The notes under the pieces were generated by a model. The model was not told the DNA's origin and made no database searches. It was given only the letters and a program-made list of their open reading frames with translations. Position numbers and translations under genes: made by a program. Below are positions 26,407 through 38,929 of a DNA stretch of 64,000 nucleotides, one piece after another. The DNA is from a candidate division CPR3 bacterium GWF2_35_18 (lineage in GTDB: Bacteria; Patescibacteriota; CPR3; GWF2-35-18): the NCBI GenBank assembly GCA_001771135.1, contig MESW01000003.1, forward strand, positions 235,786 to 299,785. The letters run 5' to 3'. Every line of letters starts with the position of its first letter. Position 1 is the first letter of the stretch.

Positions 26407-27162
26407 TTAAAAGTTTTGTGGAATATATTCCACAATTCTAAAACGAGGATATCGCACCAGATTGATTGCTGACATATAATGACACACCTCTCCTACATCT
26501 TTAATAAAATAAATCGAATTATCACTTAAAATATTAGTATTATTGTATTTCTCTTGCGCTTTTATCCAATATTGATGAAATTCTATATAATTTATAGTTA
26601 AATAGTTGATTAAGTCAGTCGTTACTTTGGTGTTCTTAGATAGTTCATAATTTGTATATCTCATAAAAAAAACTAAGTCGTTTAAAAAAAGTGTTTCCCA
26701 TCGTTCCTTTTTCATTGCTTTTTTAAATTGAGGTTGTAGCATAATTTCTAACATGTTCCGGCCTTTAAACATATTTGCGAATATTGAATTTACTCTAAAT
26801 AAATTCAATATTTTTTTGTTCCAATTATGAATGAATAAATAATCATCTTCTAAAAACGATGGATACTTAGATAATTTTAAATATGAATCTGTCTCATTTA
26901 TTGCTAATTTTACTTCTTCAGAATTAACCCTATCTTGCTGAATCCCTATTAGATACATTGCTTGTTTATCTGTTAAATCTAATACTTTCGTAATTTTTAG
27001 TAACGTTTCTTTCGTAGGGTTTATTTGACCGGATTCAACCTTAGAAATATGTCCATTAGAAGCACCAATTTCAAGCTCTAACTGTTGTTGAGTTAATCCT
27101 TTTGAAATTCGAAATTTTTGAACTTTTTCTCCAATCTGTTTTACATTTTCTTCTTTAAACAT
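26407..27162 (-). CDS. XRE-family HTH transcriptional regulator with an approximately 180-aa C-terminal domain (Rgg/RNPP-like architecture is possible)
   Basis: N-terminal HTH ISKGLTQQQLELEIGASNGHISKVESGQINP. 251 aa. Confidence 0.8.
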   Translation of the reverse strand: MFKEENVKQIGEKVQKFRISKGLTQQQLELEIGASNGHISKVESGQINPTKETLLKITKVLDLTDKQAMYLIGIQQDRVNSEEVKLAINETDSYLKLSKYPSFLEDDYLFIHNWNKKILNLFRVNSIFANMFKGRNMLEIMLQPQFKKAMKKERWETLFLNDLVFFMRYTNYELSKNTKVTTDLINYLTINYIEFHQYWIKAQEKYNNTNILSDNSIYFIKDVGEVCHYMSAINLVRYPRFRIVEYIPQNF

Positions 27163-27293
27163 ATATTGTCGGACATTAAGAAAAAGCTATGATAACGGCA
27201 TTATTATACAGAAATTAAGCTTTTTTGCCAAGAAATTTTTATTTAAAAAAAATTCTATCAACTTCAAGGTTAATATGACGCCCAAAAACACGA

Positions 27294-27317
27294 ATTTGTA
27301 TTGCATGACAAAGACAA
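27294..27317. promoter_or_regulatory. 24-nt imperfect palindromic motif ATTTGTATTGCATGACAAAGACAA in the divergent promoter region. Copy 1 of 2.
   Basis: 21 of 24 nt identical to the second copy at 27686-27711. Has TTTGT/ACAAA arms. Confidence 0.35.
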
Positions 27318-27437
27318 GTAATTTACTTTATGTTATACCGAAAAATATACTCAACATTATAAATTTGCATAAAAGAGAAGTTGAGTATAAATCGAATTGA
27401 AAATATCCTATTATAAATTGGAAAATTCAGAATTTAG

Positions 27438-27674
27438 ATGACTAAAATGACCTATTATTTACGACAACTACGCCCCAGTGAATATCGAAAATTATTGAAC
27501 CATTATTTTCCGGAATCATTCATAGATCATGAGGTTCTACGAAAATACACGCTTTTTCTTTATGAATCAGCAGTAGAACCTGATAATGATATTTATTGGG
27601 ATTTTGAGCAGTGGCTAGAAGAAAAAACTGAAGAATTTGCTACACCAGACATTGAGAGTGGCTACAAGTTTTAA
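27438..27674 (+). CDS. Small hypothetical protein (78 aa), divergent from the XRE regulator
   Basis: ORF only. Acidic, with no signal peptide. Flanked by the two 24-nt motifs. Confidence 0.3.
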   Translation: MTKMTYYLRQLRPSEYRKLLNHYFPESFIDHEVLRKYTLFLYESAVEPDNDIYWDFEQWLEEKTEEFATPDIESGYKF

Positions 27675-27685
27675 AAAAGCGTTAA

Positions 27686-27711
27686 GATTTGTATTGCGAT
27701 ACAAAGACAAA
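27686..27711. promoter_or_regulatory. Second copy of the 24-nt motif (GATTTGTATTGCGATACAAAGACAAA), upstream of secreted-protein gene 27781
   Basis: Near-palindrome TTTGTAT-tgcg-ATACAAA. Confidence 0.35.
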
Positions 27712-27780
27712 CGAATAACATTCTGATATATCTTACATATCAATGAAAAATATTAAATAAATTATTTTGAAAGGAAATTT

Positions 27781-28443
27781 ATGAAAGAAAAACTGAATCT
27801 CAAAACACTAGGTTTGATCTTTGTAGGAATATTAGTTCTAATGTCTATTGGTTATTGTGGAGGATATCTCTACACAAAATATAAAGGTAAAGCAGATAAT
27901 ATAATATCTGATAAGAATCAAGGGACTGTTGAAATAACTAAAAAGGATAATTCAAACCTAAGTATATTCAATAATACCTACTATAACTATAATTTTGAGT
28001 TTCCCAGTGACTGGATTCACAATACCACAACTTCAGAGTATGAAGATGATCCGATTACCTCAAATCAGGTCACAGACATGCATACCTCAAACGGTGAATT
28101 TGTCCAAGTTATGACCTGGAATAACGATCAAGAGGATCTTTCTCTTCTTGAGTGGTATGAGAAATATGATACTACCCATACCATTCTAGATAATCCCCCT
28201 ACAAATACTAATGCTGAGATTGCTGGTTTGAATACAATATTTCTTTACCGTCCTACCTTACAAGCTCCGGCGGATATTACCGTTATCTTCGATAAAGATG
28301 GAACCATCTTCAGACTTTGGTATGTCGCCAACGAAAGCGGAGTTGACTACGAAGACTTCCTACATCTTCTACAAACTTTCGAATTCAATGGTCAGGTAAC
28401 CTCTGATCAAATACCGGAGGTAACAAGAGAAAGCTTAAAATAA
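27781..28443 (+). CDS. Membrane-anchored/secreted protein. Its C-terminal 150-aa domain is duplicated at the N-terminus of 30063-32402.
   Basis: Signal anchor MKEKLNLKTLGLIFVGILVLMSIGY. The domain YNYNFEFPSDWIHNTTTSEYEDDPITSNQVTDMHT...LQTFEFNGQVTSDQIPEVT is about 85 percent identical to the paralog. Confidence 0.6.
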   Translation: MKEKLNLKTLGLIFVGILVLMSIGYCGGYLYTKYKGKADNIISDKNQGTVEITKKDNSNLSIFNNTYYNYNFEFPSDWIHNTTTSEYEDDPITSNQVTDMHTSNGEFVQVMTWNNDQEDLSLLEWYEKYDTTHTILDNPPTNTNAEIAGLNTIFLYRPTLQAPADITVIFDKDGTIFRLWYVANESGVDYEDFLHLLQTFEFNGQVTSDQIPEVTRESLK

Positions 28444-28468
28444 CCCTGCCTTAACATTGCTCATTAAA

Positions 28469-28656
28469 AATTAAATCGTTCGGTGAGAAGTTAGAGAATA
28501 GAAAAAGTATTCTACTTTCTGCTTCTCACCGAAAAAATACGGAGAGATACAATCCATTCCCTTTTTAGTTGACCCCTTAAAAGGTCAGGAGAGAAACTCG
28601 ATGAAGACCCGACAACTGAAATTTCAGCATAAACAAAAGATTTCATATATTTTTTG
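28469..28656 (+). repeat. Conserved approximately 145-bp promoter/leader cassette, copy 1. It has an 11-bp-stem hairpin, a leader, an AGGAGAGA RBS and an ATG, followed by a 21-aa remnant ORF MKTRQLKFQHKQKISYIFCLF.
   Basis: Aligns with 29939-30085. The hairpin is TCGGTGAGAAG...CTTCTCACCGA. Downstream identity is high through ATG plus about 20 nt. Confidence 0.6.
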
Positions 28657-28702
28657 CTTGTTCTGAAAAACATTAAATAAATTATTTTGAAAAGGAAAAT
28701 CT

Positions 28703-29851
28703 ATGAAAGAAAAAATTAACGTCAAAATACTAGGTTCAATTCTCGTCGGAATATTAATCGTTGTTGGAATTAGTTATGGTGGATATAAGTTGTTGAATAA
28801 AGAAAAAGCTAATGAAAATATTAATCAGTCAATTAAAAATGCAGAAATTGCTTTTAGGAGAAATGGAAATGTTTATATTTTAAATGACGGACAAGAAATT
28901 CAATTAACTACTGATGGGAAATGTCTAGTATCATTTACTGAAGATAAAATTAATAATTTTATCAATCCAATTTATGATTACCCTTGTTACAAAATATTAG
29001 ATTCATCAAACCAAAATCTAATCTTACTAAAATATTATAAGTACCCAAAATATCAAGAACAACTATTAGTCTACAGTTTAGATACTCAATCTTTTCATTA
29101 CTTTAATAATAACCCTGATTTTGAAACACCTATTGCTTGGAATACTCAAAAAGATAAATTTGTTTTTAAATCAGAATATAATATCATTAAAGTGGATACA
29201 AATGATTTTTCTGAAGAGAAATTACTTACATATGAACCAATAGTTGGTTGCGGAGGGATGACGAATAGTGAATACGGATTTATATATGATGAAGAGGTTG
29301 GTACTTTCAGAATGACTGGAGGAGAAACTTTAATTTGGGATGAAGATAATAATATAATTGTAACAAATACGAATTGTGATTATTCTGGCATTAAATCTTT
29401 CTATTACCAACAAAATACAAATATTGATTGGCCATATAATCTTGTAAGAGCTAAATCTTCAAATAATAGTTTAAAAGTCGCAATATTTGATGATAAAAAA
29501 TTAGATATATATAACCTTGAGGCACAGATTATTAAGTCATATAAATCTCCTGTGATAGGTAAATTACCACTTTGGACAAATTACGATAGTATAGTTTTCG
29601 TTTCTGATAAAGATATCTGGCAATTTGATATTATTACAGGAGAATTTTTAAAGTTATATTCATTACAAAACGGCTTTCCTGTAAAGCTATCTGTCAAAAA
29701 TAATATCCTCTATTTTTCTATACTTCGTGAATATCAAAACATTACCCAAGTGGATATAGGCTCATTAAGAGAAATATCTAAACTTAATTTGGAAACCAAG
29801 CAATCTATAAAAATTTTAGATAATGCTGATTCTCCAACTGTAATAAAGTGA
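28703..29851 (+). CDS. Membrane-anchored/secreted hypothetical protein (382 aa)
   Basis: Signal anchor MKEKINVKILGSILVGILIVVGISY. Shares the 5' cassette (27748-27800 versus 28668-28725) with gene 27781. Confidence 0.6.
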   Translation: MKEKINVKILGSILVGILIVVGISYGGYKLLNKEKANENINQSIKNAEIAFRRNGNVYILNDGQEIQLTTDGKCLVSFTEDKINNFINPIYDYPCYKILDSSNQNLILLKYYKYPKYQEQLLVYSLDTQSFHYFNNNPDFETPIAWNTQKDKFVFKSEYNIIKVDTNDFSEEKLLTYEPIVGCGGMTNSEYGFIYDEEVGTFRMTGGETLIWDEDNNIIVTNTNCDYSGIKSFYYQQNTNIDWPYNLVRAKSSNNSLKVAIFDDKKLDIYNLEAQIIKSYKSPVIGKLPLWTNYDSIVFVSDKDIWQFDIITGEFLKLYSLQNGFPVKLSVKNNILYFSILREYQNITQVDIGSLREISKLNLETKQSIKILDNADSPTVIK

Positions 29852-29852
29852 T

Positions 29853-29900
29853 ACTCTACGGGTGCCGCTCAGCTTCGCTTCGCTTTACCCGTAGTATTTA
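29853..29900 (+). terminator. Terminator-like hairpin after gene 28703-29851
   Basis: CTACGGGT...ACCCGTAG stem with a GC-rich 23-nt loop, followed by tattta. Confidence 0.3.
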
Positions 29901-29938
29901 GTAAGGAAAGAATAACATACTTGCACCTTTAAAATATC

Positions 29939-30085
29939 ATTCGGTGAGAAAACAGAGGTCAGAACAGAAGTTTCTAACTTCTTCTTCTCACCGAAAAATA
30001 CGGAGAGATACAAAACCCATCCTTTGTTAGTTGACCCTTTAAAAGATCAGGAGAGAGTCTCGATGAGTACCAAACAACTGAATAC
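29939..30085 (+). repeat. Conserved promoter/leader cassette, copy 2, driving the CHAP-domain protein gene
   Basis: The TCGGTGAGAA...TTCTCACCGA hairpin has a different inner loop that keeps its own inner stem. The leader is near-identical through CAGGAGAGAGTCTCGATG. Confidence 0.6.
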
Positions 30086-32402
30086 TGTGTCCACAGGAAG
30101 GCGATACTTTTATCTCGCCCTGGTAGTAACTCTACTTACCAGCGTGATTGGAGCCACTACTACTCAGCCGGTCAAAGCAAATGAAGGAGAACCACCGTCA
30201 AATTACCAAGTCTTTCTGCCTCTGATTCAAAAAGAAACCACAGAAAGTAAATGGCAGCTTTTTCAAAACTCGGAGTATCAATATACCTTTGAATTTCCCA
30301 GTGACTGGATCTACAACACCACAACCTCAGAGTATGAAGATGATCCGATTACCTCAAATCAAGTCACGGACATGCACACCCCAAATGGCGAGTTTGTCCA
30401 AGTTATGACATGGAATAACGATCAGGAAAACCTATCTCTGCTCGAATGGTATGAAAAGTATGATTCTTTTCATACCTCTCTGGATAATCCACCAGCAAAT
30501 CTCAACGCACAAATTGCAGGCTTGGATAGTATATACTTTAATCGTCTTACACTCCAAGCCCCGGCGGATATTACCGCGATCTTTAATAAAGACGGTGCTA
30601 TCTTCAGAATCTGGTATGTGGCTAATGAAGATGGAATTGACTATGAAAACTTTCTGCACCTTCTGCAAACCTTCGAATTTGATGGCCAAACAACCTCCGA
30701 TCAAATTCCAGATGTAACGCCAGACATTTTGGTCAAAGAAGTTTCGCCAAACGCTATCGAAGCCAATACCTGTAATAACAGAACCGATCCCAACGGTAAT
30801 CCATATGCATGTTTATGTAGCGGAGCCTATGGTAACTGCACCTGGTGGGCAAACTATATGCGACCTGACCTCCAAAGTATTAATTTTGGTGATGCTAAAG
30901 ATTGGAATGATGTAGTTTTAAATCATTCAAAACTAAAATACCTCCTTCCAGTCAATGGTACTCCAGAACTTGGCGCCATTGCCGTTTTTGAAGCTTATTA
31001 CCCCTGGGGAGGAATTGGAAACTTAGGACACGTTGCTTATGTCACTGGACACAACTCCCAAGACAACACGATAAGTATCTCTCAGATGTCTTGCGGCACC
31101 AACGGTATCCAGGTATATAACAATATCCCTATTGTTTCCGGACAAATCAGCTTCATTCACGGTTCCCCCACAATCTTTGAACACTCAAATTTTCAAGGAG
31201 ATTGGAGTCGTTTTACAGTTGATCTCCTTAATTACTGGGGTGAAAGATACATGTACTCTGAAGATGGCAACTATGCTTACCTCAATGACAGCGCTTCTTC
31301 AGTATGGATACCTCCAGATTACAGTGTCAGTCTTTTCAAAAATAACAACTGGCAATGCCCAGCAAATACCGGGTACCTTGATAACGGAGATCTATATGGT
31401 AGTGATGGTTACCCAGTTCTGGATACCCGATGGAGTAATTTCACATCACTAATGTTTTCTGATAATACCTCCATGAATGATGCTGTCTCTGGACATCAGA
31501 TTGGACACTTTGTCTGCCTTTCGCCTGGTTGCGGCTCCCTTCAGTCTTTCAATTCGGAATACAATAACGAACATACAAGTCCAGACACAATCTATGGAAT
31601 GTGCAGTGGAGCAACACCACCTCACCTCTATCAAGCGTCAGATCTGGTTGTGCTAAATAACCCTGCTCCCGCAGGTATAGATAATACCTTTACCTTCAGT
31701 ATCTACAATGCTGGTGATCTGACATTCAACATGTCTGAAATCTTTGTCTCTGGACACCTTTATGACGGCGGAGCATGGAAAGCCTGGGCGACTGTCCAAA
31801 ACATTGGACCTGGACAAATAAAGACCTTTATCGCTTCTGCCCCAATGTGGGGAGACAAAATCGGATCCTGGTACATCGATGGGATTGTTTACAAATCTAC
31901 ATCCGGTAATTTCTATAATTTACCTGGAAATGGATTCCTGCAAACTCAAAGCTTCACTGTTTCTAATACCGGAGTTTGGCTGTTTCAAGGGCTTCGATAT
32001 GAAGGAATTGGAGAACGATTTTCAAGTAACGATCCCAATCTTTCTAACAATCGTATCGACAACGATACGACAACATCAATTAAAATCTACACCGGGTGGT
32101 ATACCGTTGTCTGTAAAAATCAAAGTTATGGAGGGAGATGCGAATTTTTTGCTTCCTCAGATAATGATCTGAGAAATAACATCGTTGGGAGTAACACGAT
32201 TTCTTCAATCGTGGTATTAAAAAACTGGATGTTTATCAAAGGATCAACTGCGACAATTTACATCATTGAAAACGGTCAAAAAAAAGGTATTCCTTCCTGG
32301 AAAGAATATCTCTGTCTCGGAGGTCAACCCGGAGGTTATATCACTCTACTTGATACAATAGTGTCTCTTATTCCAACTGGACAGGTAAAACACTGTCCGT
32401 GA
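30063..32402 (+). CDS. Secreted/anchored protein with a duplicated N-terminal domain, a CHAP (cysteine/histidine-dependent amidohydrolase/peptidase) domain and a beta-rich C-terminal region
   Basis: Start revised to the ATG at 30063, which has an AGGAGAGAG RBS. The ORF-track start is an upstream TTG. Signal anchor YFYLALVVTLLTSVIGA. CHAP Cys in GNCTWWANY and His in LGHVAYVTGHN. Confidence 0.7.
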   Translation: MSTKQLNTVSTGRRYFYLALVVTLLTSVIGATTTQPVKANEGEPPSNYQVFLPLIQKETTESKWQLFQNSEYQYTFEFPSDWIYNTTTSEYEDDPITSNQVTDMHTPNGEFVQVMTWNNDQENLSLLEWYEKYDSFHTSLDNPPANLNAQIAGLDSIYFNRLTLQAPADITAIFNKDGAIFRIWYVANEDGIDYENFLHLLQTFEFDGQTTSDQIPDVTPDILVKEVSPNAIEANTCNNRTDPNGNPYACLCSGAYGNCTWWANYMRPDLQSINFGDAKDWNDVVLNHSKLKYLLPVNGTPELGAIAVFEAYYPWGGIGNLGHVAYVTGHNSQDNTISISQMSCGTNGIQVYNNIPIVSGQISFIHGSPTIFEHSNFQGDWSRFTVDLLNYWGERYMYSEDGNYAYLNDSASSVWIPPDYSVSLFKNNNWQCPANTGYLDNGDLYGSDGYPVLDTRWSNFTSLMFSDNTSMNDAVSGHQIGHFVCLSPGCGSLQSFNSEYNNEHTSPDTIYGMCSGATPPHLYQASDLVVLNNPAPAGIDNTFTFSIYNAGDLTFNMSEIFVSGHLYDGGAWKAWATVQNIGPGQIKTFIASAPMWGDKIGSWYIDGIVYKSTSGNFYNLPGNGFLQTQSFTVSNTGVWLFQGLRYEGIGERFSSNDPNLSNNRIDNDTTTSIKIYTGWYTVVCKNQSYGGRCEFFASSDNDLRNNIVGSNTISSIVVLKNWMFIKGSTATIYIIENGQKKGIPSWKEYLCLGGQPGGYITLLDTIVSLIPTGQVKHCP

Positions 32403-32418
32403 AAGGAGAATCACAGAT

Positions 32419-32504
32419 CAGGCTGGGGACAACGGCGATTCCGTTGTACCACAATGACAATCAAGCTTGCTTTCTTTAAAAGCTTTGCTCGTTGTCCCCA
32501 GCCT
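32419..32504. repeat. Palindromic element, copy 1 (GGCTGGGGACAACGG...CCGTTGTCCCCAGCC, 14-bp arms with an inner hairpin)
   Basis: Lies in a convergent intergenic region. The second copy is at 32674-32737. Confidence 0.55.
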
Positions 32505-32673
32505 GTACTTTCTTTGTCTTTCCTCTCCATAAAAATGACAAAGAAAAAAGTATCGTAGATTCAAAATCTACCCGATGAGTCCTCTTTCGCAAAAATTACG
32601 AAGGACGAAATACTTTTGAATTAGTACCAAAAATTGTATAGATTAATAATAAAGTTGTTTTAGGAAAGATTGA

Positions 32674-32737
32674 CAGGCTAGGGACAACGGCTTACCCCGT
32701 TGTACCACCAATGAAGCTTTGCTCGTTGTCCCTAGTC
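32674..32737. repeat. Palindromic element, copy 2 (GGCTAGGGACAACGG...CGTTGTCCCTAGTC). Has compensatory arm changes and an approximately 24-bp internal deletion.
   Basis: G to A in the left arm is matched by C to T in the right arm, which preserves pairing. Confidence 0.55.
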
Positions 32738-32771
32738 TATCTCTTTTCTAAACTAAATTATACTAAATATC

Positions 32772-33399: not shown

Positions 33400-35457
33400 C
33401 TATATCTTCTTGATTATTTTCAATAATATTCCCATTATTATCGCGATAATTCCTATTTTCAAACCTCTTTTTCCTGTCTTTGGTAACTCAGTAATTGAGC
33501 CTAAAACTGTCCCCGAATCAATCGGAAATTCTGAAACATAAAGATCCTCTTGATATCGTGGCAGAACTCGATATTCTTCTTTGTACTGTGAAACAATTCC
33601 AACAATTTCCGCATAGTAACCCACACGCATTTTGGGTTTATCAATATTTGTCGTATCTTTGATATAAACTTTTATCTCTCCACTACCATCGTTTATATAA
33701 AAGGTATTTCCGGAAGTGGCCACCACCTGCCCGTTTATGATGACTAATTTTCCTTCAGCAATTTCTACAATCTCTCCAGTCTTTTTTGTTTCTGCTATCA
33801 AAGCATCACCATGTGAACTAATTTCTAAAATCGAATCTGATTGCATGTTAAGATAAATCTCATTAAAAGCAACACTTAAAACACCCGAAACTTTAATTTT
33901 ATCCCCAAGGGTTAGAGTGCTGTAATCGCCCCCTTTCAGCTTCACTTTTATTCCCGAAGTAGAATCCTGAACATAGATAATCTTTGAACCCAAAATATCT
34001 GGAGTAGCAGTTAAAATTCCTTGAATTATTATTTCTGTTCCGGAAGGTAAACTTCTCGCTTCTGAAATTGTATATTCTTTCACAACAGCTTTATCTTCAT
34101 CATCATCATCATCATCATCATCATCTTCTTCTTCAATCTCTTCTTCTACAATATTTTCTACCGTGATCACATTTTTGATTTTTGGAGTTGGAGTAGTGCT
34201 AACTTGCCAAATTCCTTTTTCGTCCTTAGCAAAAACTTGATCGGTTTTTAATTTTCCATACGGATACTCTTCGACTAACTTATTATCTGGTGTGAATAAA
34301 CGAATACTATCGCCGTCATTATTAAAAGTAATTCCTGTATCTTTTTGATAAAAGACAAGGTATTCTCCTTGCTTGATTTCTGTATTTTCTGGAATTATGT
34401 ATGAACTACTTCCACCTTCGATATCATCAATAATCCATCCCGTAAGATCGACAGTTTCACTCCCAAAATTATAGAGTTCCACCCATTCGTCATTAGAATC
34501 AGCCACTCCGTTTTTATCGAAGTCCGTGGTTTTCCCCGGATAAGGTAAAATCTCGGAAAGGATAATCTGGTCAGAATAAATAATTTCCTCCACTGTAATA
34601 CTAACAATATTTACGTTTTCTGCCCCACAATCGTCTGTCACTGTTAATTTTACTGAATACGTTCCAACTTCCTTGTAAATATGTGTTACGTTATCCTCAC
34701 TCGTTTCATAATCATCGCCATCTCCAAAATCAAAATAATAGGAAGTGATTTGTCCGTCTGGGTCAGAAGAAAATGAAGCATCAAATTCCACTTCTTGTCT
34801 GACTTTGACAATTTGATCGTATTTTAATTCGGCTATTGGAAGTTGATTCGAAACATAAGACTTTCCGGGCGTTCCATGAATACTTTTGCTGGAAACCCAA
34901 TTTGATGAATCGTTAATTCCATTCAAATCCACTCTTTCCAGACTTTTTCCGAGATCTCCTCCCCAACTCGGATCATAGATAATACTTTCCCATGGAGTTT
35001 CGGAAATGCCAATTTTAAGACTTATTGTATCTACAGTATTTCCAAGTGAAAGACTGTTAACTTGTATTAAGTCTTCTAAATAATCAGGATATCGTGTCAT
35101 GAATTGTATTGGGTTTCGAGCTAAAACAGCATATTGTTGTGAATCCAAAATCATATCTCCTTGATAAGCTGTTTCTTGCAAAGTACGATTAGAGGTTCCG
35201 TCTCCGATTCTCCAAGAGCCAGAAAGCGTCCCACCGATAATCGTTACGGGAGTCAAACCGCGATTGTAGATCTCAATCCATTCAAAATCTGTATCAGAGC
35301 CTTCGGGGTCATACATAATTTCGGAAAAAATAATTTCAGACTCCGCTGCATAAACTGATAATAAAAGGTTATTTTGATTACATAATAACCAGCATAACAA
35401 AACGATAATAAATGAAAATACAAAACGGAAAAGTTTGTTAGAAGTGTGGTGGTACAT
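33400..35457 (-). CDS. LPXTG-anchored surface protein with two lamin-tail domains (LTD), a PKD domain and a poly-Asp/Glu tract
   Basis: N-terminal signal peptide. LTD motifs SEIMYDPEGSDTDFEWIEIYN and SEILPYPG...DEWVELYN. PKD-like FSSDPDGQITSYYFDFGDGD...YSVKLTVTDDCGAE. Acidic tract EEEIEEEDDDDDDDDDEDK. C-terminal LPKTG, a hydrophobic helix and a KIIKKI tail (sortase signal). Confidence 0.8.
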   Translation of the reverse strand: MYHHTSNKLFRFVFSFIIVLLCWLLCNQNNLLLSVYAAESEIIFSEIMYDPEGSDTDFEWIEIYNRGLTPVTIIGGTLSGSWRIGDGTSNRTLQETAYQGDMILDSQQYAVLARNPIQFMTRYPDYLEDLIQVNSLSLGNTVDTISLKIGISETPWESIIYDPSWGGDLGKSLERVDLNGINDSSNWVSSKSIHGTPGKSYVSNQLPIAELKYDQIVKVRQEVEFDASFSSDPDGQITSYYFDFGDGDDYETSEDNVTHIYKEVGTYSVKLTVTDDCGAENVNIVSITVEEIIYSDQIILSEILPYPGKTTDFDKNGVADSNDEWVELYNFGSETVDLTGWIIDDIEGGSSSYIIPENTEIKQGEYLVFYQKDTGITFNNDGDSIRLFTPDNKLVEEYPYGKLKTDQVFAKDEKGIWQVSTTPTPKIKNVITVENIVEEEIEEEDDDDDDDDDEDKAVVKEYTISEARSLPSGTEIIIQGILTATPDILGSKIIYVQDSTSGIKVKLKGGDYSTLTLGDKIKVSGVLSVAFNEIYLNMQSDSILEISSHGDALIAETKKTGEIVEIAEGKLVIINGQVVATSGNTFYINDGSGEIKVYIKDTTNIDKPKMRVGYYAEIVGIVSQYKEEYRVLPRYQEDLYVSEFPIDSGTVLGSITELPKTGKRGLKIGIIAIIMGILLKIIKKI
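34096..34136. repeat. Simple-sequence repeat (ATC)n(TTC)3 encoding the poly-Asp tract
   Basis: Perfect trinucleotide repeat read directly from the sequence. Confidence 0.9.
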
Positions 35458-36142: not shown

Positions 36143-37339
36143 TTACTGTAGATGCCAATATAGAGTCATCAGACTTTCAGTGTGATAAATAAGCGCACCC
36201 TTACCACCATATTGATCAATAGTATAGTGAATGTTACCTGCGTCTGCCGCCAAAATTGGCGAACCATAATCCCAATACATATCAATTCCATTGTGAAAAT
36301 TATCCGAGTAAAATCCTGAAGACATCGAGAAATCAGTTACCCCATACCATTGCGAAATATAATGCGGTTCTAAAGGCCAAGATAAAATCCCTGAATCAAG
36401 ATAGGGTTTGGGATCAGTATGACACCAAGAAGAACCACATTTACTATATACTCCAAAGTGTAGGTGATCACCAGTAGCAAGTCCTGTCGAGCCTTGAATA
36501 CCAATCACATCACCTTTATTTACAAATTGACCTTCGCCAACCGAACCAGATACAATTTGAGTTATGATTGAAGAGATCGCATATTGAATCGCGTTTTGCT
36601 CAGCTTGAGCCTCAGCAAGAAGCTGTTGGTACTGACTCTCATCATTACTGGTAATATCAAGCAAATACTGTTTAGACTCTTTTTGTTTAGCCAGACTAAT
36701 TTTTTCCGCTTCCAGCTGTTCGTTTGCAAGTATTAGCTCTTGTTTCAACCTTTCTGCTTCGTCTTTTTTAGTTTGTAAATTAATTATCTGGGCATTATAG
36801 TCACCTTGAGTTGCCTGCATCTGCGACATCAACCGTCGATCTTGTTCCTGAACTGTTTTTAAATATTGATAACGATAAACCAAATCCTGTAAATCATCTT
36901 TTCCTTGAAAAACAATTGAAAGTCCACCACCGATTTGGCTTTTTTTGTATGATGAACGGATTCGTGATTGCAGAACGACACCCAGTTTATTGATAAATTC
37001 TTTGATTCTCTGCAGCTTGGTATTGATCTTCTCCATATCAAGAACCAGCTGTGAAAGCTCGGCTTCTTTTCCGGCGACCTGTTCTTTTTGGATCTGAATT
37101 TCCAGCTGCGTCAGCTGTACCTGACTTTCAAGATAAGCAACTTGATTGGCTAGTGACCGGCTTTGATTCTGCAGATCTTCAATCTGACGCCGTAACTCTT
37201 CCTGTTTCTGCTCATTTTCCGTTAACTTACTCTTTTCCTGATTCAAAGTATCGTTAAGCTCATCAGCTGTTACTGAAAAAATATTTCCGGTTAAAAAAAG
37301 TAGCGCGAGAAAAATTGTGAGCAGTTTTCTAAATTTCAT
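36143..37339 (-). CDS. M23/LytM-family peptidase with an N-terminal coiled coil (EnvC/PcsB-like FtsEX-associated hydrolase or activator)
   Basis: Signal peptide, long coiled coil, and a C-terminal M23 domain (GDHLHFGVY motif, HxH). Lies downstream of ftsE-ftsX. Confidence 0.8.
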   Translation of the reverse strand: MKFRKLLTIFLALLFLTGNIFSVTADELNDTLNQEKSKLTENEQKQEELRRQIEDLQNQSRSLANQVAYLESQVQLTQLEIQIQKEQVAGKEAELSQLVLDMEKINTKLQRIKEFINKLGVVLQSRIRSSYKKSQIGGGLSIVFQGKDDLQDLVYRYQYLKTVQEQDRRLMSQMQATQGDYNAQIINLQTKKDEAERLKQELILANEQLEAEKISLAKQKESKQYLLDITSNDESQYQQLLAEAQAEQNAIQYAISSIITQIVSGSVGEGQFVNKGDVIGIQGSTGLATGDHLHFGVYSKCGSSWCHTDPKPYLDSGILSWPLEPHYISQWYGVTDFSMSSGFYSDNFHNGIDMYWDYGSPILAADAGNIHYTIDQYGGKGALIYHTESLMTLYWHLQ

Positions 37340-37348
37340 AGGTTAAAA

Positions 37349-38239
37349 TTATTTACTAAGCCCTTTATAAATAGCTACCATACTTCCGGTAACTCCCATA
37401 AAAATTCCCAAAGCAACATCTCCCAAAAATAGCTTCAAAATTACGGTGTTGGGAATCGGAAAAAGCGGAATTCCAGCCATGAAATTGGAGACTGAAGGAG
37501 CAATATAAGGAAGAAGGAAATACACAAGCAACAAAGCTATGGTTCCCGAAATTACTCCATAACTCATTCCTTCAAGAAGAAAAGGCCATCTGATGTATGA
37601 GGATGATGCTCCCACGAGACGCATAATCTCAATCTCTTCACGACGACTGGCTATATTCGATCCGATTGTGATAATCACAATCAAAACTGATATCAACCCA
37701 AAGATCGCGACCAAAACCATTCCTCCCAATCTAATTGCGTTAGTCCATTGTTGTAGAGTAGCCACAACATCTTGTTGAAAATAAACATCTTCAACAAGTA
37801 ATTCTTCTTCCAAAAGACTGGCAAGATGTCCCAAATAAACAATATCGGTAGCTGATATTTCCAGTGAAGCTGGTAAGATCTTGGCACTAACCATCTCCAA
37901 TAAAATCGGCTCATCTTTATTTTGCTCTTTATATCGAGCTAGGGCTTCTTCTTTTGACACGTATTGAATTTCTTTAACTTCACCTGTTTCAAAGAGTTTT
38001 CCTTTGATTACATTTATATTATCAACGCTTGCTTCATCTTTAAAAAACGCAGTTACTTGTGGTTTGGCCTCAAAATGAGTCAAAACGACGTTCAAACCAA
38101 AGATCATCAGAATAAAAAAAGTGATCAAAATCAAAGTTAAGGACATTACAATTACGGCGGTAATTGAATGCGACATATTACGTAAAAAATGCTGTGCGGT
38201 GGTTTTGATAATCCTTACTGGTGTTGTAAATAGTGACAT
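37349..38239 (-). CDS. ftsX: Cell-division permease FtsX
   Basis: Four-TM topology with a large periplasmic loop, directly after ftsE. Confidence 0.85.
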   Translation of the reverse strand: MSLFTTPVRIIKTTAQHFLRNMSHSITAVIVMSLTLILITFFILMIFGLNVVLTHFEAKPQVTAFFKDEASVDNINVIKGKLFETGEVKEIQYVSKEEALARYKEQNKDEPILLEMVSAKILPASLEISATDIVYLGHLASLLEEELLVEDVYFQQDVVATLQQWTNAIRLGGMVLVAIFGLISVLIVIITIGSNIASRREEIEIMRLVGASSSYIRWPFLLEGMSYGVISGTIALLLVYFLLPYIAPSVSNFMAGIPLFPIPNTVILKLFLGDVALGIFMGVTGSMVAIYKGLSK

Positions 38240-38245
38240 AATAGC

Positions 38246-38929
38246 TTATTCCTCCACATACTTTCCTTTTGCTACATCACGAACAACCTGACCGTGGTCT
38301 AGGGACAAAACCCTTTTCTGCAAAGCGTTTACAATATCCTGATTGTGCGTTGCCATCAGTACGGTTGTTCCCCAAGAATTAATTTGGTTTAGAAGCTGAA
38401 TAATTTCCCAAGCATTCGTTTGGTCTAGATTTCCTGTCGGTTCATCGGCAATTAAAATCTTTGGTTCATGTACCAAAGCTCTAGCAATTGCAGTCCGCTG
38501 ACTCTCACCACCTGATAGCTGATGTGGAAAAGAATCTCTCTTATCCTGAAGTCCAACCAGCTTTAACATATATGGAACAACTTTTTGAATCTCCCCATTA
38601 GTCTTACCGGATACCTCCATTGCAAAAGCCACATTTTCAAAAACGGTTTTTTTCGGTAGCAGTTTAAAATCCTGGTAAACAACGCCCACTTTTCGTCTCA
38701 AAGCAGGTAGTTTCCGAGAAGGTAAATGCGCAATATTTGCTCCGTCAACAAATACTTTACCAGATGTCGGTCTGTCTTCACGATTCATCATTCGAAGTAA
38801 GCTGGTTTTTCCTGCTCCTGATGGTCCAACAATAAAAACAAATTCGCCTTTATCTATTTCAAAATTGATATCCTTTAAGGCGACACTTATCTTGGTAAAA
38901 CGACGGGATACGTTATCAAACTTAATCAT
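38246..38929 (-). CDS. ftsE: Cell-division ABC ATPase FtsE
   Basis: Walker A GPSGAGKTS, ABC signature LSGGESQR, Walker B ILIADEPT. Confidence 0.9.
   Translation of the reverse strand: MIKFDNVSRRFTKISVALKDINFEIDKGEFVFIVGPSGAGKTSLLRMMNREDRPTSGKVFVDGANIAHLPSRKLPALRRKVGVVYQDFKLLPKKTVFENVAFAMEVSGKTNGEIQKVVPYMLKLVGLQDKRDSFPHQLSGGESQRTAIARALVHEPKILIADEPTGNLDQTNAWEIIQLLNQINSWGTTVLMATHNQDIVNALQKRVLSLDHGQVVRDVAKGKYVEE

Follow-up and report, generated by a model that had tools for sequence, protein, structure and literature searches.

Paralogous modules and a PsbP-fold domain beside a predicted CHAP wall hydrolase in a CPR3 bacterium

The wall hydrolase PcsB, which combines a coiled coil with a CHAP domain, is controlled by FtsEX, and RipA carries an inhibitory N-terminal segment. 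The PsbP/Mog1/DUF1795-like fold (PF18933, PF01789) is represented by CyanoP (2xb3/2lnj), LpqN (6e5d), DcrB (6e8a), and BT_1490 (3hlz). A PsbP-like fold is also seen in immunity proteins of the type VI secretion system (T6SS), namely Tsi3, which is paired with the muramidase Tse3 (4luq/3wa5), and TplEi/Tli4 (5h7y). The expression site of the Borrelia hermsii vmp genes has upstream and downstream homology sequences (UHS/DHS; PMC6011951). Here we describe a locus of the Rifle aquifer bacterium GWF2_35_18, which belongs to CPR3, a candidate phylum in the NCBI taxonomy. Three consecutive plus-strand genes (genes 1 to 3) share three modules there, called cassette A, domain X, and cassette B. The locus lies in a 64-kb stretch of contig MESW01000003.1 (assembly GCA_001771135.1; the window), and the copy numbers and blastn E-values of the modules refer to the whole window.

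Gene 3 resembles PcsB and RipA in that a CHAP domain is joined to a non-catalytic N-terminal domain and FtsEX is encoded nearby. It differs from PcsB in that the N-terminal module, X, has a PsbP fold instead of a coiled coil and in that a free membrane-anchored paralogue of this module is encoded nearby. The sequence similarity of X to members of the PsbP/Mog1/DUF1795-like fold is below every curated threshold. Compared with the T6SS immunity proteins, X occurs without a T6SS or other delivery system and is also fused in cis to the enzyme. As in the vmp genes (PMC6011951) and the Mycoplasma variable lipoprotein families (reviewed in PMC4534519), a conserved 5′ block with an export signal and a conserved downstream block flank unrelated bodies. 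Unlike those families, the locus has two slots, no silent archive in the window, no lipobox, and no switching across assemblies, and it is under purifying selection. Nothing at the locus is categorically new, and the partnership between PsbP-fold domains and CHAP hydrolases is the part most worth following. The locus itself is probably best explained as an old paralogous array beside a wall hydrolase, formed by a duplicated A-X-B unit and one body swap, in which the X copy of gene 1 is a tethered paralogue.

A prediction made earlier from the sequence of the window alone (the original prediction) had described genes 1 to 3 as a mosaic of shared modules. Self-comparison and blastn confirmed three shared modules at the predicted places, all with similarities far beyond chance. 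Cassette A precedes genes 1 and 2. A1 (27744..27861, plus strand; guanine-plus-cytosine (GC) content 24%) consists of a 5′ untranslated region (5′UTR), a ribosome site (AAAGGAAA), the ATG at 27781, and the N-terminal signal anchor of gene 1, and A2 (28664..28783, plus strand) consists of a 5′UTR, a ribosome site, the ATG at 28703, and the signal anchor of gene 2. The two copies (27744-27861 and 28664-28783) showed 79% nucleotide identity with gaps, rising to 91% in the 34-nt upstream part in the self-comparison, and the blastn core was 83% identical over 93 nt (E = 7e-22). The anchors of genes 1 and 2 had 16 of 27 residues in common. A 5′ cassette common to genes 27781 and 28703 is therefore real, but "near-identical", as it had been called, overstates the resemblance. 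The label "promoter" did not hold for cassette A either, which is made up of 5′UTR, ribosome site, and anchor; a convincing σ70 site was not found in it.

Domain X occurs in genes 1 and 3. X1 (27952..28437, plus strand) corresponds to amino acids (aa) 58-219 of gene 1, and X2 (30246..30731, plus strand), which stands in front of the CHAP domain, corresponds to aa 62-223 of gene 3. The nucleotide homology extends over 27982-28424 and 30276-30718 (79-80% identity, E = 1e-107). Protein identity was 77% over 162 aa and 81% over the core 150 aa, so that the predicted sharing of a domain between gene 1 and the CHAP protein stood, with an identity slightly below the proposed value of about 85%. The second cassette that had been placed ahead of genes 28703 and 30063 was likewise found. 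This cassette, B, occupies 28452..28620 (B1) and 29913..30082 (B2) on the plus strand, with 79% nucleotide identity between the copies (E = 1.5e-32). Each of A, B, and X is present in exactly two copies in the window, and both X1 and the body of gene 2 lie between an upstream A and a downstream B. By GC content the modules form two groups, one of 24-27% (A1, the linker of gene 1, A2, and the body of gene 2) and one of 37-44% (X1, B1, B2, X2, and the remainder of gene 3). Gene 1 unites both, its A part having 24% GC and X1 40%, and is thus chimeric in composition. These results bear out, as history, the original prediction's view that the genes are mosaics whose modules are shared in a non-tree-like way.

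The divergence of the X copies was measured by the Nei-Gojobori method. The proportion of synonymous differences (pS) between X1 and X2 was 0.69, which is near saturation, and that of nonsynonymous differences (pN) was 0.13; the ratio of nonsynonymous to synonymous rates (dN/dS) was 0.075. Because the synonymous sites are near saturation, the duplication of X is old. Of the 120 differences, 75 were at third codon positions, and the bases of X1 at the differing sites were 33 A, 38 T, 30 C, and 19 G, with A making up 32.5% of the bases. Two copies of a 440-nt segment that are about 80% identical, one of them in a secreted protein, could recall a diversity-generating retroelement whose target is X and whose template and variable repeats are X1 and X2. 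However, all four bases are affected about as often as the composition predicts, most of the differences lie at third positions, dN/dS is low, and no reverse-transcriptase (RVT) family was present among the precomputed Pfam matches of the genes within 10 kb on each side. The substitution spectrum, which lacks the template-adenine signature, refutes this explanation, whose probability is practically nil; the lack of adenine bias had been rightly noted in the original prediction and used to the same end. The shared modules are shown to have been kept by purifying selection and not by ongoing shuffling. The proposal of antigenic or host-interaction diversification was not upheld, in view of the dN/dS, the age of the copies, the invariant module order described below, and the widespread conserved architectures of X.

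The order of the modules was identical, at 99-100% identity, in all spanning contigs read (ENA, JGI, NCBI (GCA_001771165.1), and Logan). A comparison of strain variants, which had been suggested as a check for structural polymorphism, gave this same order in every spanning assembly read, and the sole structural variant was a 67-nt deletion (29071-29137) in the strain contig L003. The deletion frameshifts gene 2 into open reading frames (ORFs) of 157 and 219 aa, and gene 2 appears to be dispensable in at least one strain. It might be supposed that the repeated modules are an assembly artefact produced by chimeric joins of strain variants, given that many short contigs end inside or just after gene 2 (28968-29893) and that the NCBI scaffold has a gap of Ns inside X1. 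Against this, long contigs from different assemblers and samples (40.7 kb in ENA; UR67_C0001, 0.5 Mb) have the identical order, and copies that are about 80% identical are too divergent for assembler collapse or duplication; such an artefact is very improbable.

L003 also differed from the window in gene 3. All 29 differences between L003 and the window in gene 3 fell within 31487-31852 (366 nt, aa 475-597; L003 9282-9647), and the other approximately 1850 nt compared were identical. Fifteen of the substitutions were synonymous and 14 were not; most were transitions, and they were not A-biased. A second variant, P0004, has three residues fewer in the same region. The segment 31487-31852 looks like an imported recombination tract in the C-terminal domain.

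A sister lineage gave evidence on the history of the array. A homologue of gene 1 (P0002, 74% identical) was found on contig L011, which comes from another Rifle sample. This contig was assembled by MEGAHIT at a k-mer length of 127 (k127) and begins and ends with the same 127 nt; L011 is therefore a looped 918-bp unit. The order in the unit is the 3′ end of X, B, junction, A, anchor, and X, and the linkage B-junction-A-X was confirmed by L012, an independent k141 assembly. The spacing from A1 to A2 in the window is 920-922 bp, in agreement with the period of 918 bp in L011. Positions 2-438 of L011 aligned with 28318-28758 of the window at 83% identity straight through the join of B1 and A2, which indicates that this join had formed before the two lineages separated. 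Downstream of the anchor the two sequences part, X following in L011 and the body of gene 2 in the window. The search for other cassette combinations in related lineages, as the original prediction had proposed, was thus rewarded, since in L011 the B-junction-A segment is joined to X and not to the β-propeller of gene 2. In the A cassette of L011, the 5′ half resembles A2 and the 3′ half resembles A1.

The simplest reading of these data would be duplication followed by replacement. In the ancestral state, a membrane-anchored stand-alone A-X gene would have stood directly upstream of an X-CHAP gene whose 5′ region was B. A segment of about 920 bp, beginning just 5′ of A and ending some 20 nt within the hydrolase gene, may then have been duplicated in tandem to give the arrangement [A-X-B′][A-X-B]-hydrolase; this reach into the hydrolase gene would account for the dead hydrolase start codon in B1. 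In the lineage of the window, the body of the second unit would later have been replaced by an unrelated AT-rich β-propeller (gene 2), with the A anchor and B kept. Several observations weigh against this account. The direction of the swap (X to gene 2, or gene 2 to X) is read from a single short looped contig of the sister lineage, and the GC content fits a native A-gene 2 combination with a chimeric A-X combination equally well or better, so that the direction could be reversed. The 43 nt that follow the vestigial start of B1 have no clear homology to gene 3, and the right boundary of the duplication is not pinned down. X1, X2, and the X of L011 are about equidistant (75%, 76%, and 74% nucleotide identity). 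Their informative sites are mosaic: X1 and X2 are grouped by 45 of 64 sites in the central 330 nt, and X1 and L011 by 34 of 37 sites at both ends (maximum chi-square permutation p < 0.001). Gene conversion between X1 and X2 and uneven rates fit this signal equally well with three sequences, and the signal blurs a simple duplication history.

Cassette B and the sequence that follows it retain traces of these events. B1 contains a long hairpin (28479-28533), the invariant ACGGAGAGATAC and TTGACC blocks, a ribosome site GGAGAGA (28588-28594), and a vestigial ATG at 28601. B2 contains the hairpin (29940-29995), the conserved blocks, a ribosome site, and the ATG at 30063, which is the functional start of gene 3. 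The ATG of B1 (MKTRQLK...), which together with about seven codons is similar to the beginning of gene 3, opens an ORF of only 21 codons that runs into A2, and its homologue in B2 is the real start of gene 3 (MSTKQLN...). B1 is therefore a defunct duplicate of the hydrolase gene's 5′ end, from which no gene now starts; its short ORF is not conserved in L011, where it has 10 codons. The hairpin of B1 lies directly 3′ of the stop codon of the upstream gene, with a folding energy of −42.9 kcal/mol (z = −5.1). It is followed by AAAAAAUAC on the plus strand, and the terminator scan reported nothing there. The B hairpin is thus not a canonical intrinsic terminator on the coding strand, because an A run and not a U tract follows it. 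No match to Rfam was obtained in the window at gathering thresholds, nor in 27200-30300 at E ≤ 1, and cassette B is therefore not a described RNA family. In a scan of 27.1-32.8 kb for σ70 promoters and terminators, the counts equalled those of shuffled sequence, and nothing convincing was found in A or B.

The identity between the window and L011 was 84% in the hairpin, 87% in the stretch up to the vestigial ATG, and 90% in the 5′UTR of A2. The 39-nt non-coding junction block between B1 and A2 (28622..28660, plus strand) agreed with L011 at every position (39 of 39), which makes it the longest stretch of perfect identity to L011 in the locus; no coding part is conserved as well, and flanking coding DNA was 75-77% identical. 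At the synonymous sites of X, pS between the window and L011 was 0.68. Judged by this sequence conservation, the hairpin, the ATG-proximal stretch, the A2 5′UTR, and the junction block appear to be constrained non-coding elements, because they are 84-100% identical while 68% of the synonymous sites of X differ. They are presumably expression signals, and the junction block is a candidate promoter or operator for gene 2. Cassette B would combine the 3′ hairpin of the upstream gene with the translation start of the next gene, and together with the junction block it probably gives genes 2 and 3 related expression control.

The same features could be taken to indicate an active cassette-exchange or surface-variation system, in which A and B act as flanking homology boxes that swap exported bodies into expression slots for host interaction. 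Homology boxes are indeed present on both sides of the bodies, two adjacent slots have the same A and B around unrelated bodies, X takes the place of gene 2 in the sister lineage, and the non-coding parts of A, B, and the junction are more conserved than would be expected under neutrality. The arrangement is analogous to the UHS/DHS elements of vmp (PMC6011951). Shared 5′ cassettes with unrelated bodies also recur in other loci of the Candidate Phyla Radiation (CPR). In a Paceibacteria locus (L041), three genes flanking a CHAP gene have a common 165-nt cassette of promoter-like sequence, 5′UTR, and anchor (84-87% identity), and their bodies are unalignable. Nevertheless, the L041 anchors differ at many synonymous sites (pS 0.40-0.49) and almost no nonsynonymous sites (pN 0.01-0.06), so that these copies are old and the anchor protein is almost frozen, a pattern of selection and not of recent exchange. 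In the window, each cassette is present only twice, no further silent or alternative cassettes were found in the 64 kb, and no recombinase or invertase was seen nearby. The order was the same in every spanning assembly read, and a different body was found only in a sister lineage that is about 75% identical, not within the population. X itself consists of old copies under strong purifying selection, with no diversifying selection (dN/dS 0.075). Active exchange is accordingly quite unlikely, and the old paralogous array remains the preferred explanation.

A shared 5′ cassette with different bodies is typical of these hydrolase neighbourhoods, and it looks like a matter of anchor conservation rather than of fresh shuffling. 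In an unrelated metagenome, locus L010 (X 41% identical) has at least three tandem stand-alone X genes with near-identical anchors and a conserved 250-nt downstream region with a similar three-tier hairpin. This was the one locus obtained in the metagenome scan; a scan of genome contigs with the close X sequences found nothing, and a 47-sequence alignment of X was too diverse for search patterns. The sequence L056/P0003 (1.36 kb, high GC) was set aside as a probable assembly chimera, with only 120 nt of X-like sequence (958-1077, 93% identical to L011) in unrelated sequence.

As a separate observation, the last approximately 45 residues of a small CHAP protein are repeated in the neighbouring larger hydrolase in two loci (L041, 7821-8504 and 9670-11829; L054, 7791-8507 and 9471-11636). 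The larger hydrolase of L054 has 708 aa and is M23-like by eye, and that of L041 has a second amidase-like N-terminus. Neighbouring wall hydrolases thus commonly have modules in common in these Patescibacteria genomes.

The family to which X belongs was exposed only by an exhaustive profile hidden Markov model (HMM) search of 1.84 billion cluster representatives. When genes 1, 2, and 3 were used as queries in word-indexed protein searches, they matched almost nothing but themselves, and gene 1 gave nothing significant in Pfam, NCBIfam, or PHROG. The profile search returned 61 relatives of X in all, 17 of them at E ≤ 1e-10, and the family comprises about 61 clusters at 50% identity. Two architectures were observed. 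In the first, a signal sequence or anchor is followed by X in a protein of about 170-260 residues. In the second, which has 350-1700 residues and accounts for at least 22 of the 61 representatives, X is followed within about 30 aa by GNC[TV]WW, the CHAP catalytic motif. The structure of X was modelled with AlphaFold2 (AF2) on the 47-sequence alignment; a poor model from three sequences (predicted local distance difference test (pLDDT) 56) was discarded. Foldseek matched the model to CyanoP (E = 1e-5), and X has the α-β-α sandwich of the PsbP/Mog1 fold. Support from sequence was below threshold: gene 1 scored 12.2 bits against PsbP_2 (PF18933; cutoff 27, E = 0.19), and a PDB profile matched PsbP at E = 0.3. 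X is an unannotated PsbP-fold family, and its hallmark is fusion or adjacency to CHAP hydrolases.

Many members of the family also have a motif, [VIF][FY]LP[LIMV][IV], either after the signal peptide and before X or at the extreme C-terminus. In gene 3 it reads VFLPLIQ (aa 51-57, 30213-30233), and it is carried by P0005, P0006, P0015, P0018, P0019, P0023, P0028, P0038, P0044, P0053, and P0060. The motif may be a sorting or processing tag, although it matched no described signal.

The CHAP domain of gene 3 (30822..31088, plus strand; aa 254-342) was recognized by PF05257 at 46 bits, compared with a gathering cutoff of 26 (E = 7e-12), and has weak similarity to the CHAP region of PcsB. It contains a catalytic-Cys motif, GNCTWWA, and the sequence GHVAYV, and the columns of this Cys (C198) and of the His in GHVAYV (H262) are invariant in the X-CHAP alignment. 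On the strength of these motifs, gene 3 is tentatively predicted to encode a secreted CHAP cell-wall hydrolase with amidase or peptidase activity.

A scan of GTDB species genomes with the X-CHAP alignment yielded 36 loci. The fusion of X and CHAP was found mainly in Chloroflexota (at least 13 loci, in Anaerolineae, Caldilineaceae, Ardenticatenaceae, Chloroflexaceae, and Thermoflexales) and once in Wirthbacteria. A CHAP gene without X is the form seen in Patescibacteria (Moraniibacteriota, Parcubacteria, Paceibacteria, and others) and Bdellovibrionales; directly upstream of it, in the same orientation, stand one to four genes whose products are anchored, are about 200-250 residues long, and have the PsbP-like start "W..Y.N..YGF...YP..W". 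The gap between the PsbP-like gene and the unfused CHAP gene was 71-187 nt in seven Patescibacteria or Bdellovibrionales loci. When the upstream proteins were compared with PsbP_2 (gathering score 27 bits), one scored 27.2 bits and two scored 22-24 bits. The window is unusual in carrying both forms, namely the fused X2 in gene 3 and the free anchored X1 in gene 1, which are 77% identical. A functional partnership of X and CHAP is suggested by a classic kind of evidence, namely that the two are fused in one clade and adjacent in another, and this partnership did not come up in a literature search. The N-terminal PsbP-fold domain of gene 3 would be a binding or regulatory module of the hydrolase. 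Gene 1 would encode a membrane-tethered paralogue of this module, probably with the same partner, which may serve as a tethered regulator or inhibitor. Two findings count against this assignment. Gene 1 is two genes away from gene 3, 1.6 kb upstream and not adjacent to it, and no stand-alone X was found within 8 kb of the Chloroflexota fusions.

The pairing might alternatively reflect toxin and immunity, gene 3 being a secreted antibacterial or host-attacking CHAP toxin and gene 1 and the PsbP-like arrays being tethered immunity proteins. In Patescibacteria and Bdellovibrionales, hydrolase genes of the CHAP and M23 types are flanked by divergent genes for anchored PsbP-like proteins that stand in tandem arrays. 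The fold is similar to that of Tsi3 and TplEi, and the candidate immunity genes are close to the cognate enzyme (1.6 kb for gene 1; 71-187 nt in the seven other loci). In addition, cultivated Patescibacteria are described as obligate episymbionts of other microbes (PMC11623550). However, fusion of the same domain in cis to the hydrolase, as in gene 3 and in Chloroflexota, better fits a regulatory or targeting domain. No secretion-system or toxin-delivery genes were seen nearby, the neighbours are housekeeping envelope genes (FtsEX, M23 peptidase, and VanZ), and the PsbP fold is common in envelope proteins without an immunity function (LpqN, DcrB, and MTC28). A toxin-immunity pair is thus the less likely, though still a live, alternative. 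We also considered a combined and more speculative reading, in which A and B are recombination or expression boxes that form slots for exchanged exported bodies and the PsbP-fold proteins are tethered inhibitors of CHAP, giving a new hydrolase-plus-inhibitor module with cassette-style turnover that is split in Patescibacteria and Bdellovibrionales and fused in Chloroflexota. This reading is unlikely; if true, it would amount to a previously undescribed hydrolase-plus-inhibitor module in CPR episymbionts.

The remaining features of the locus were as follows. Gene 1 (27781..28443, plus strand; 220 aa, UR67_C0001G0252 by position) is an ORF with the same call in the contigs read, and its product has an uncleaved-looking transmembrane anchor, a linker, and the stand-alone X domain. 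Gene 2 (28703..29851, plus strand; 382 aa, UR67_C0001G0253; GC 27%) encodes an A-type anchor and an orphan β-propeller-like body. Its protein search returned no relatives besides itself, and the body gave a weak match to Pfam DPPIV_N (28.9 bits over aa 116-241). Gene 3 (30063..32402, plus strand; UR67_C0001G0254, "Peptidase C51 domain-containing protein") is an ORF for which the gene calls use the 779-aa form, with a signal peptide, the VFLPLIQ motif, X2, CHAP, and a C-terminal region of about 430 aa. A phage origin of genes 1 to 3 was rejected, since PHROG gave no matches except the generic helix-turn-helix (HTH) of the neighbouring regulator, and a tRNA scan found none.

The neighbourhood is rich in envelope genes. 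FtsE, FtsX, an M23 peptidase, a VanZ-like protein, and a 685-aa LTD/PKD surface protein that ends in an LPKTG sortase signal are encoded there (36143-38929 and 33400-35457, both on the minus strand), and the FtsEX and M23 operon is 4 kb from gene 3. Two copies of a 70-90-nt hairpin element (CAGGCTGGGGACAACG ... CGTTGTCCCCAGCCTG; 32421-32507 and 32674-32741) lie between the convergent gene 3 and VanZ-like gene and had no Rfam match. On the other side, a box, ATTTGTATTGC..ACAAAGACAA, with a TTGTAT/ATACAA palindrome occurs at 27294-27317 and 27687-27710, upstream of a 78-aa ORF (27438) and of gene 1, and adjoins a divergently transcribed XRE-type regulator gene (26407-27162, minus strand). It may be an operator; the repeat match alone was not significant (E = 0.19).

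As genome evolution, the locus is ordinary, with a tandem duplication, a domain copy, and one body replacement. The near-invariant anchors in the 5′UTR-plus-anchor cassettes hint at a specific role of the anchor. From the pairing of PsbP-fold domains and CHAP hydrolases in Chloroflexota, Patescibacteria, and Bdellovibrionales, the two would be expected to be partners, physically or in regulation, which is relevant to the question of how ultrasmall episymbionts regulate or target enzymes that degrade cell walls.

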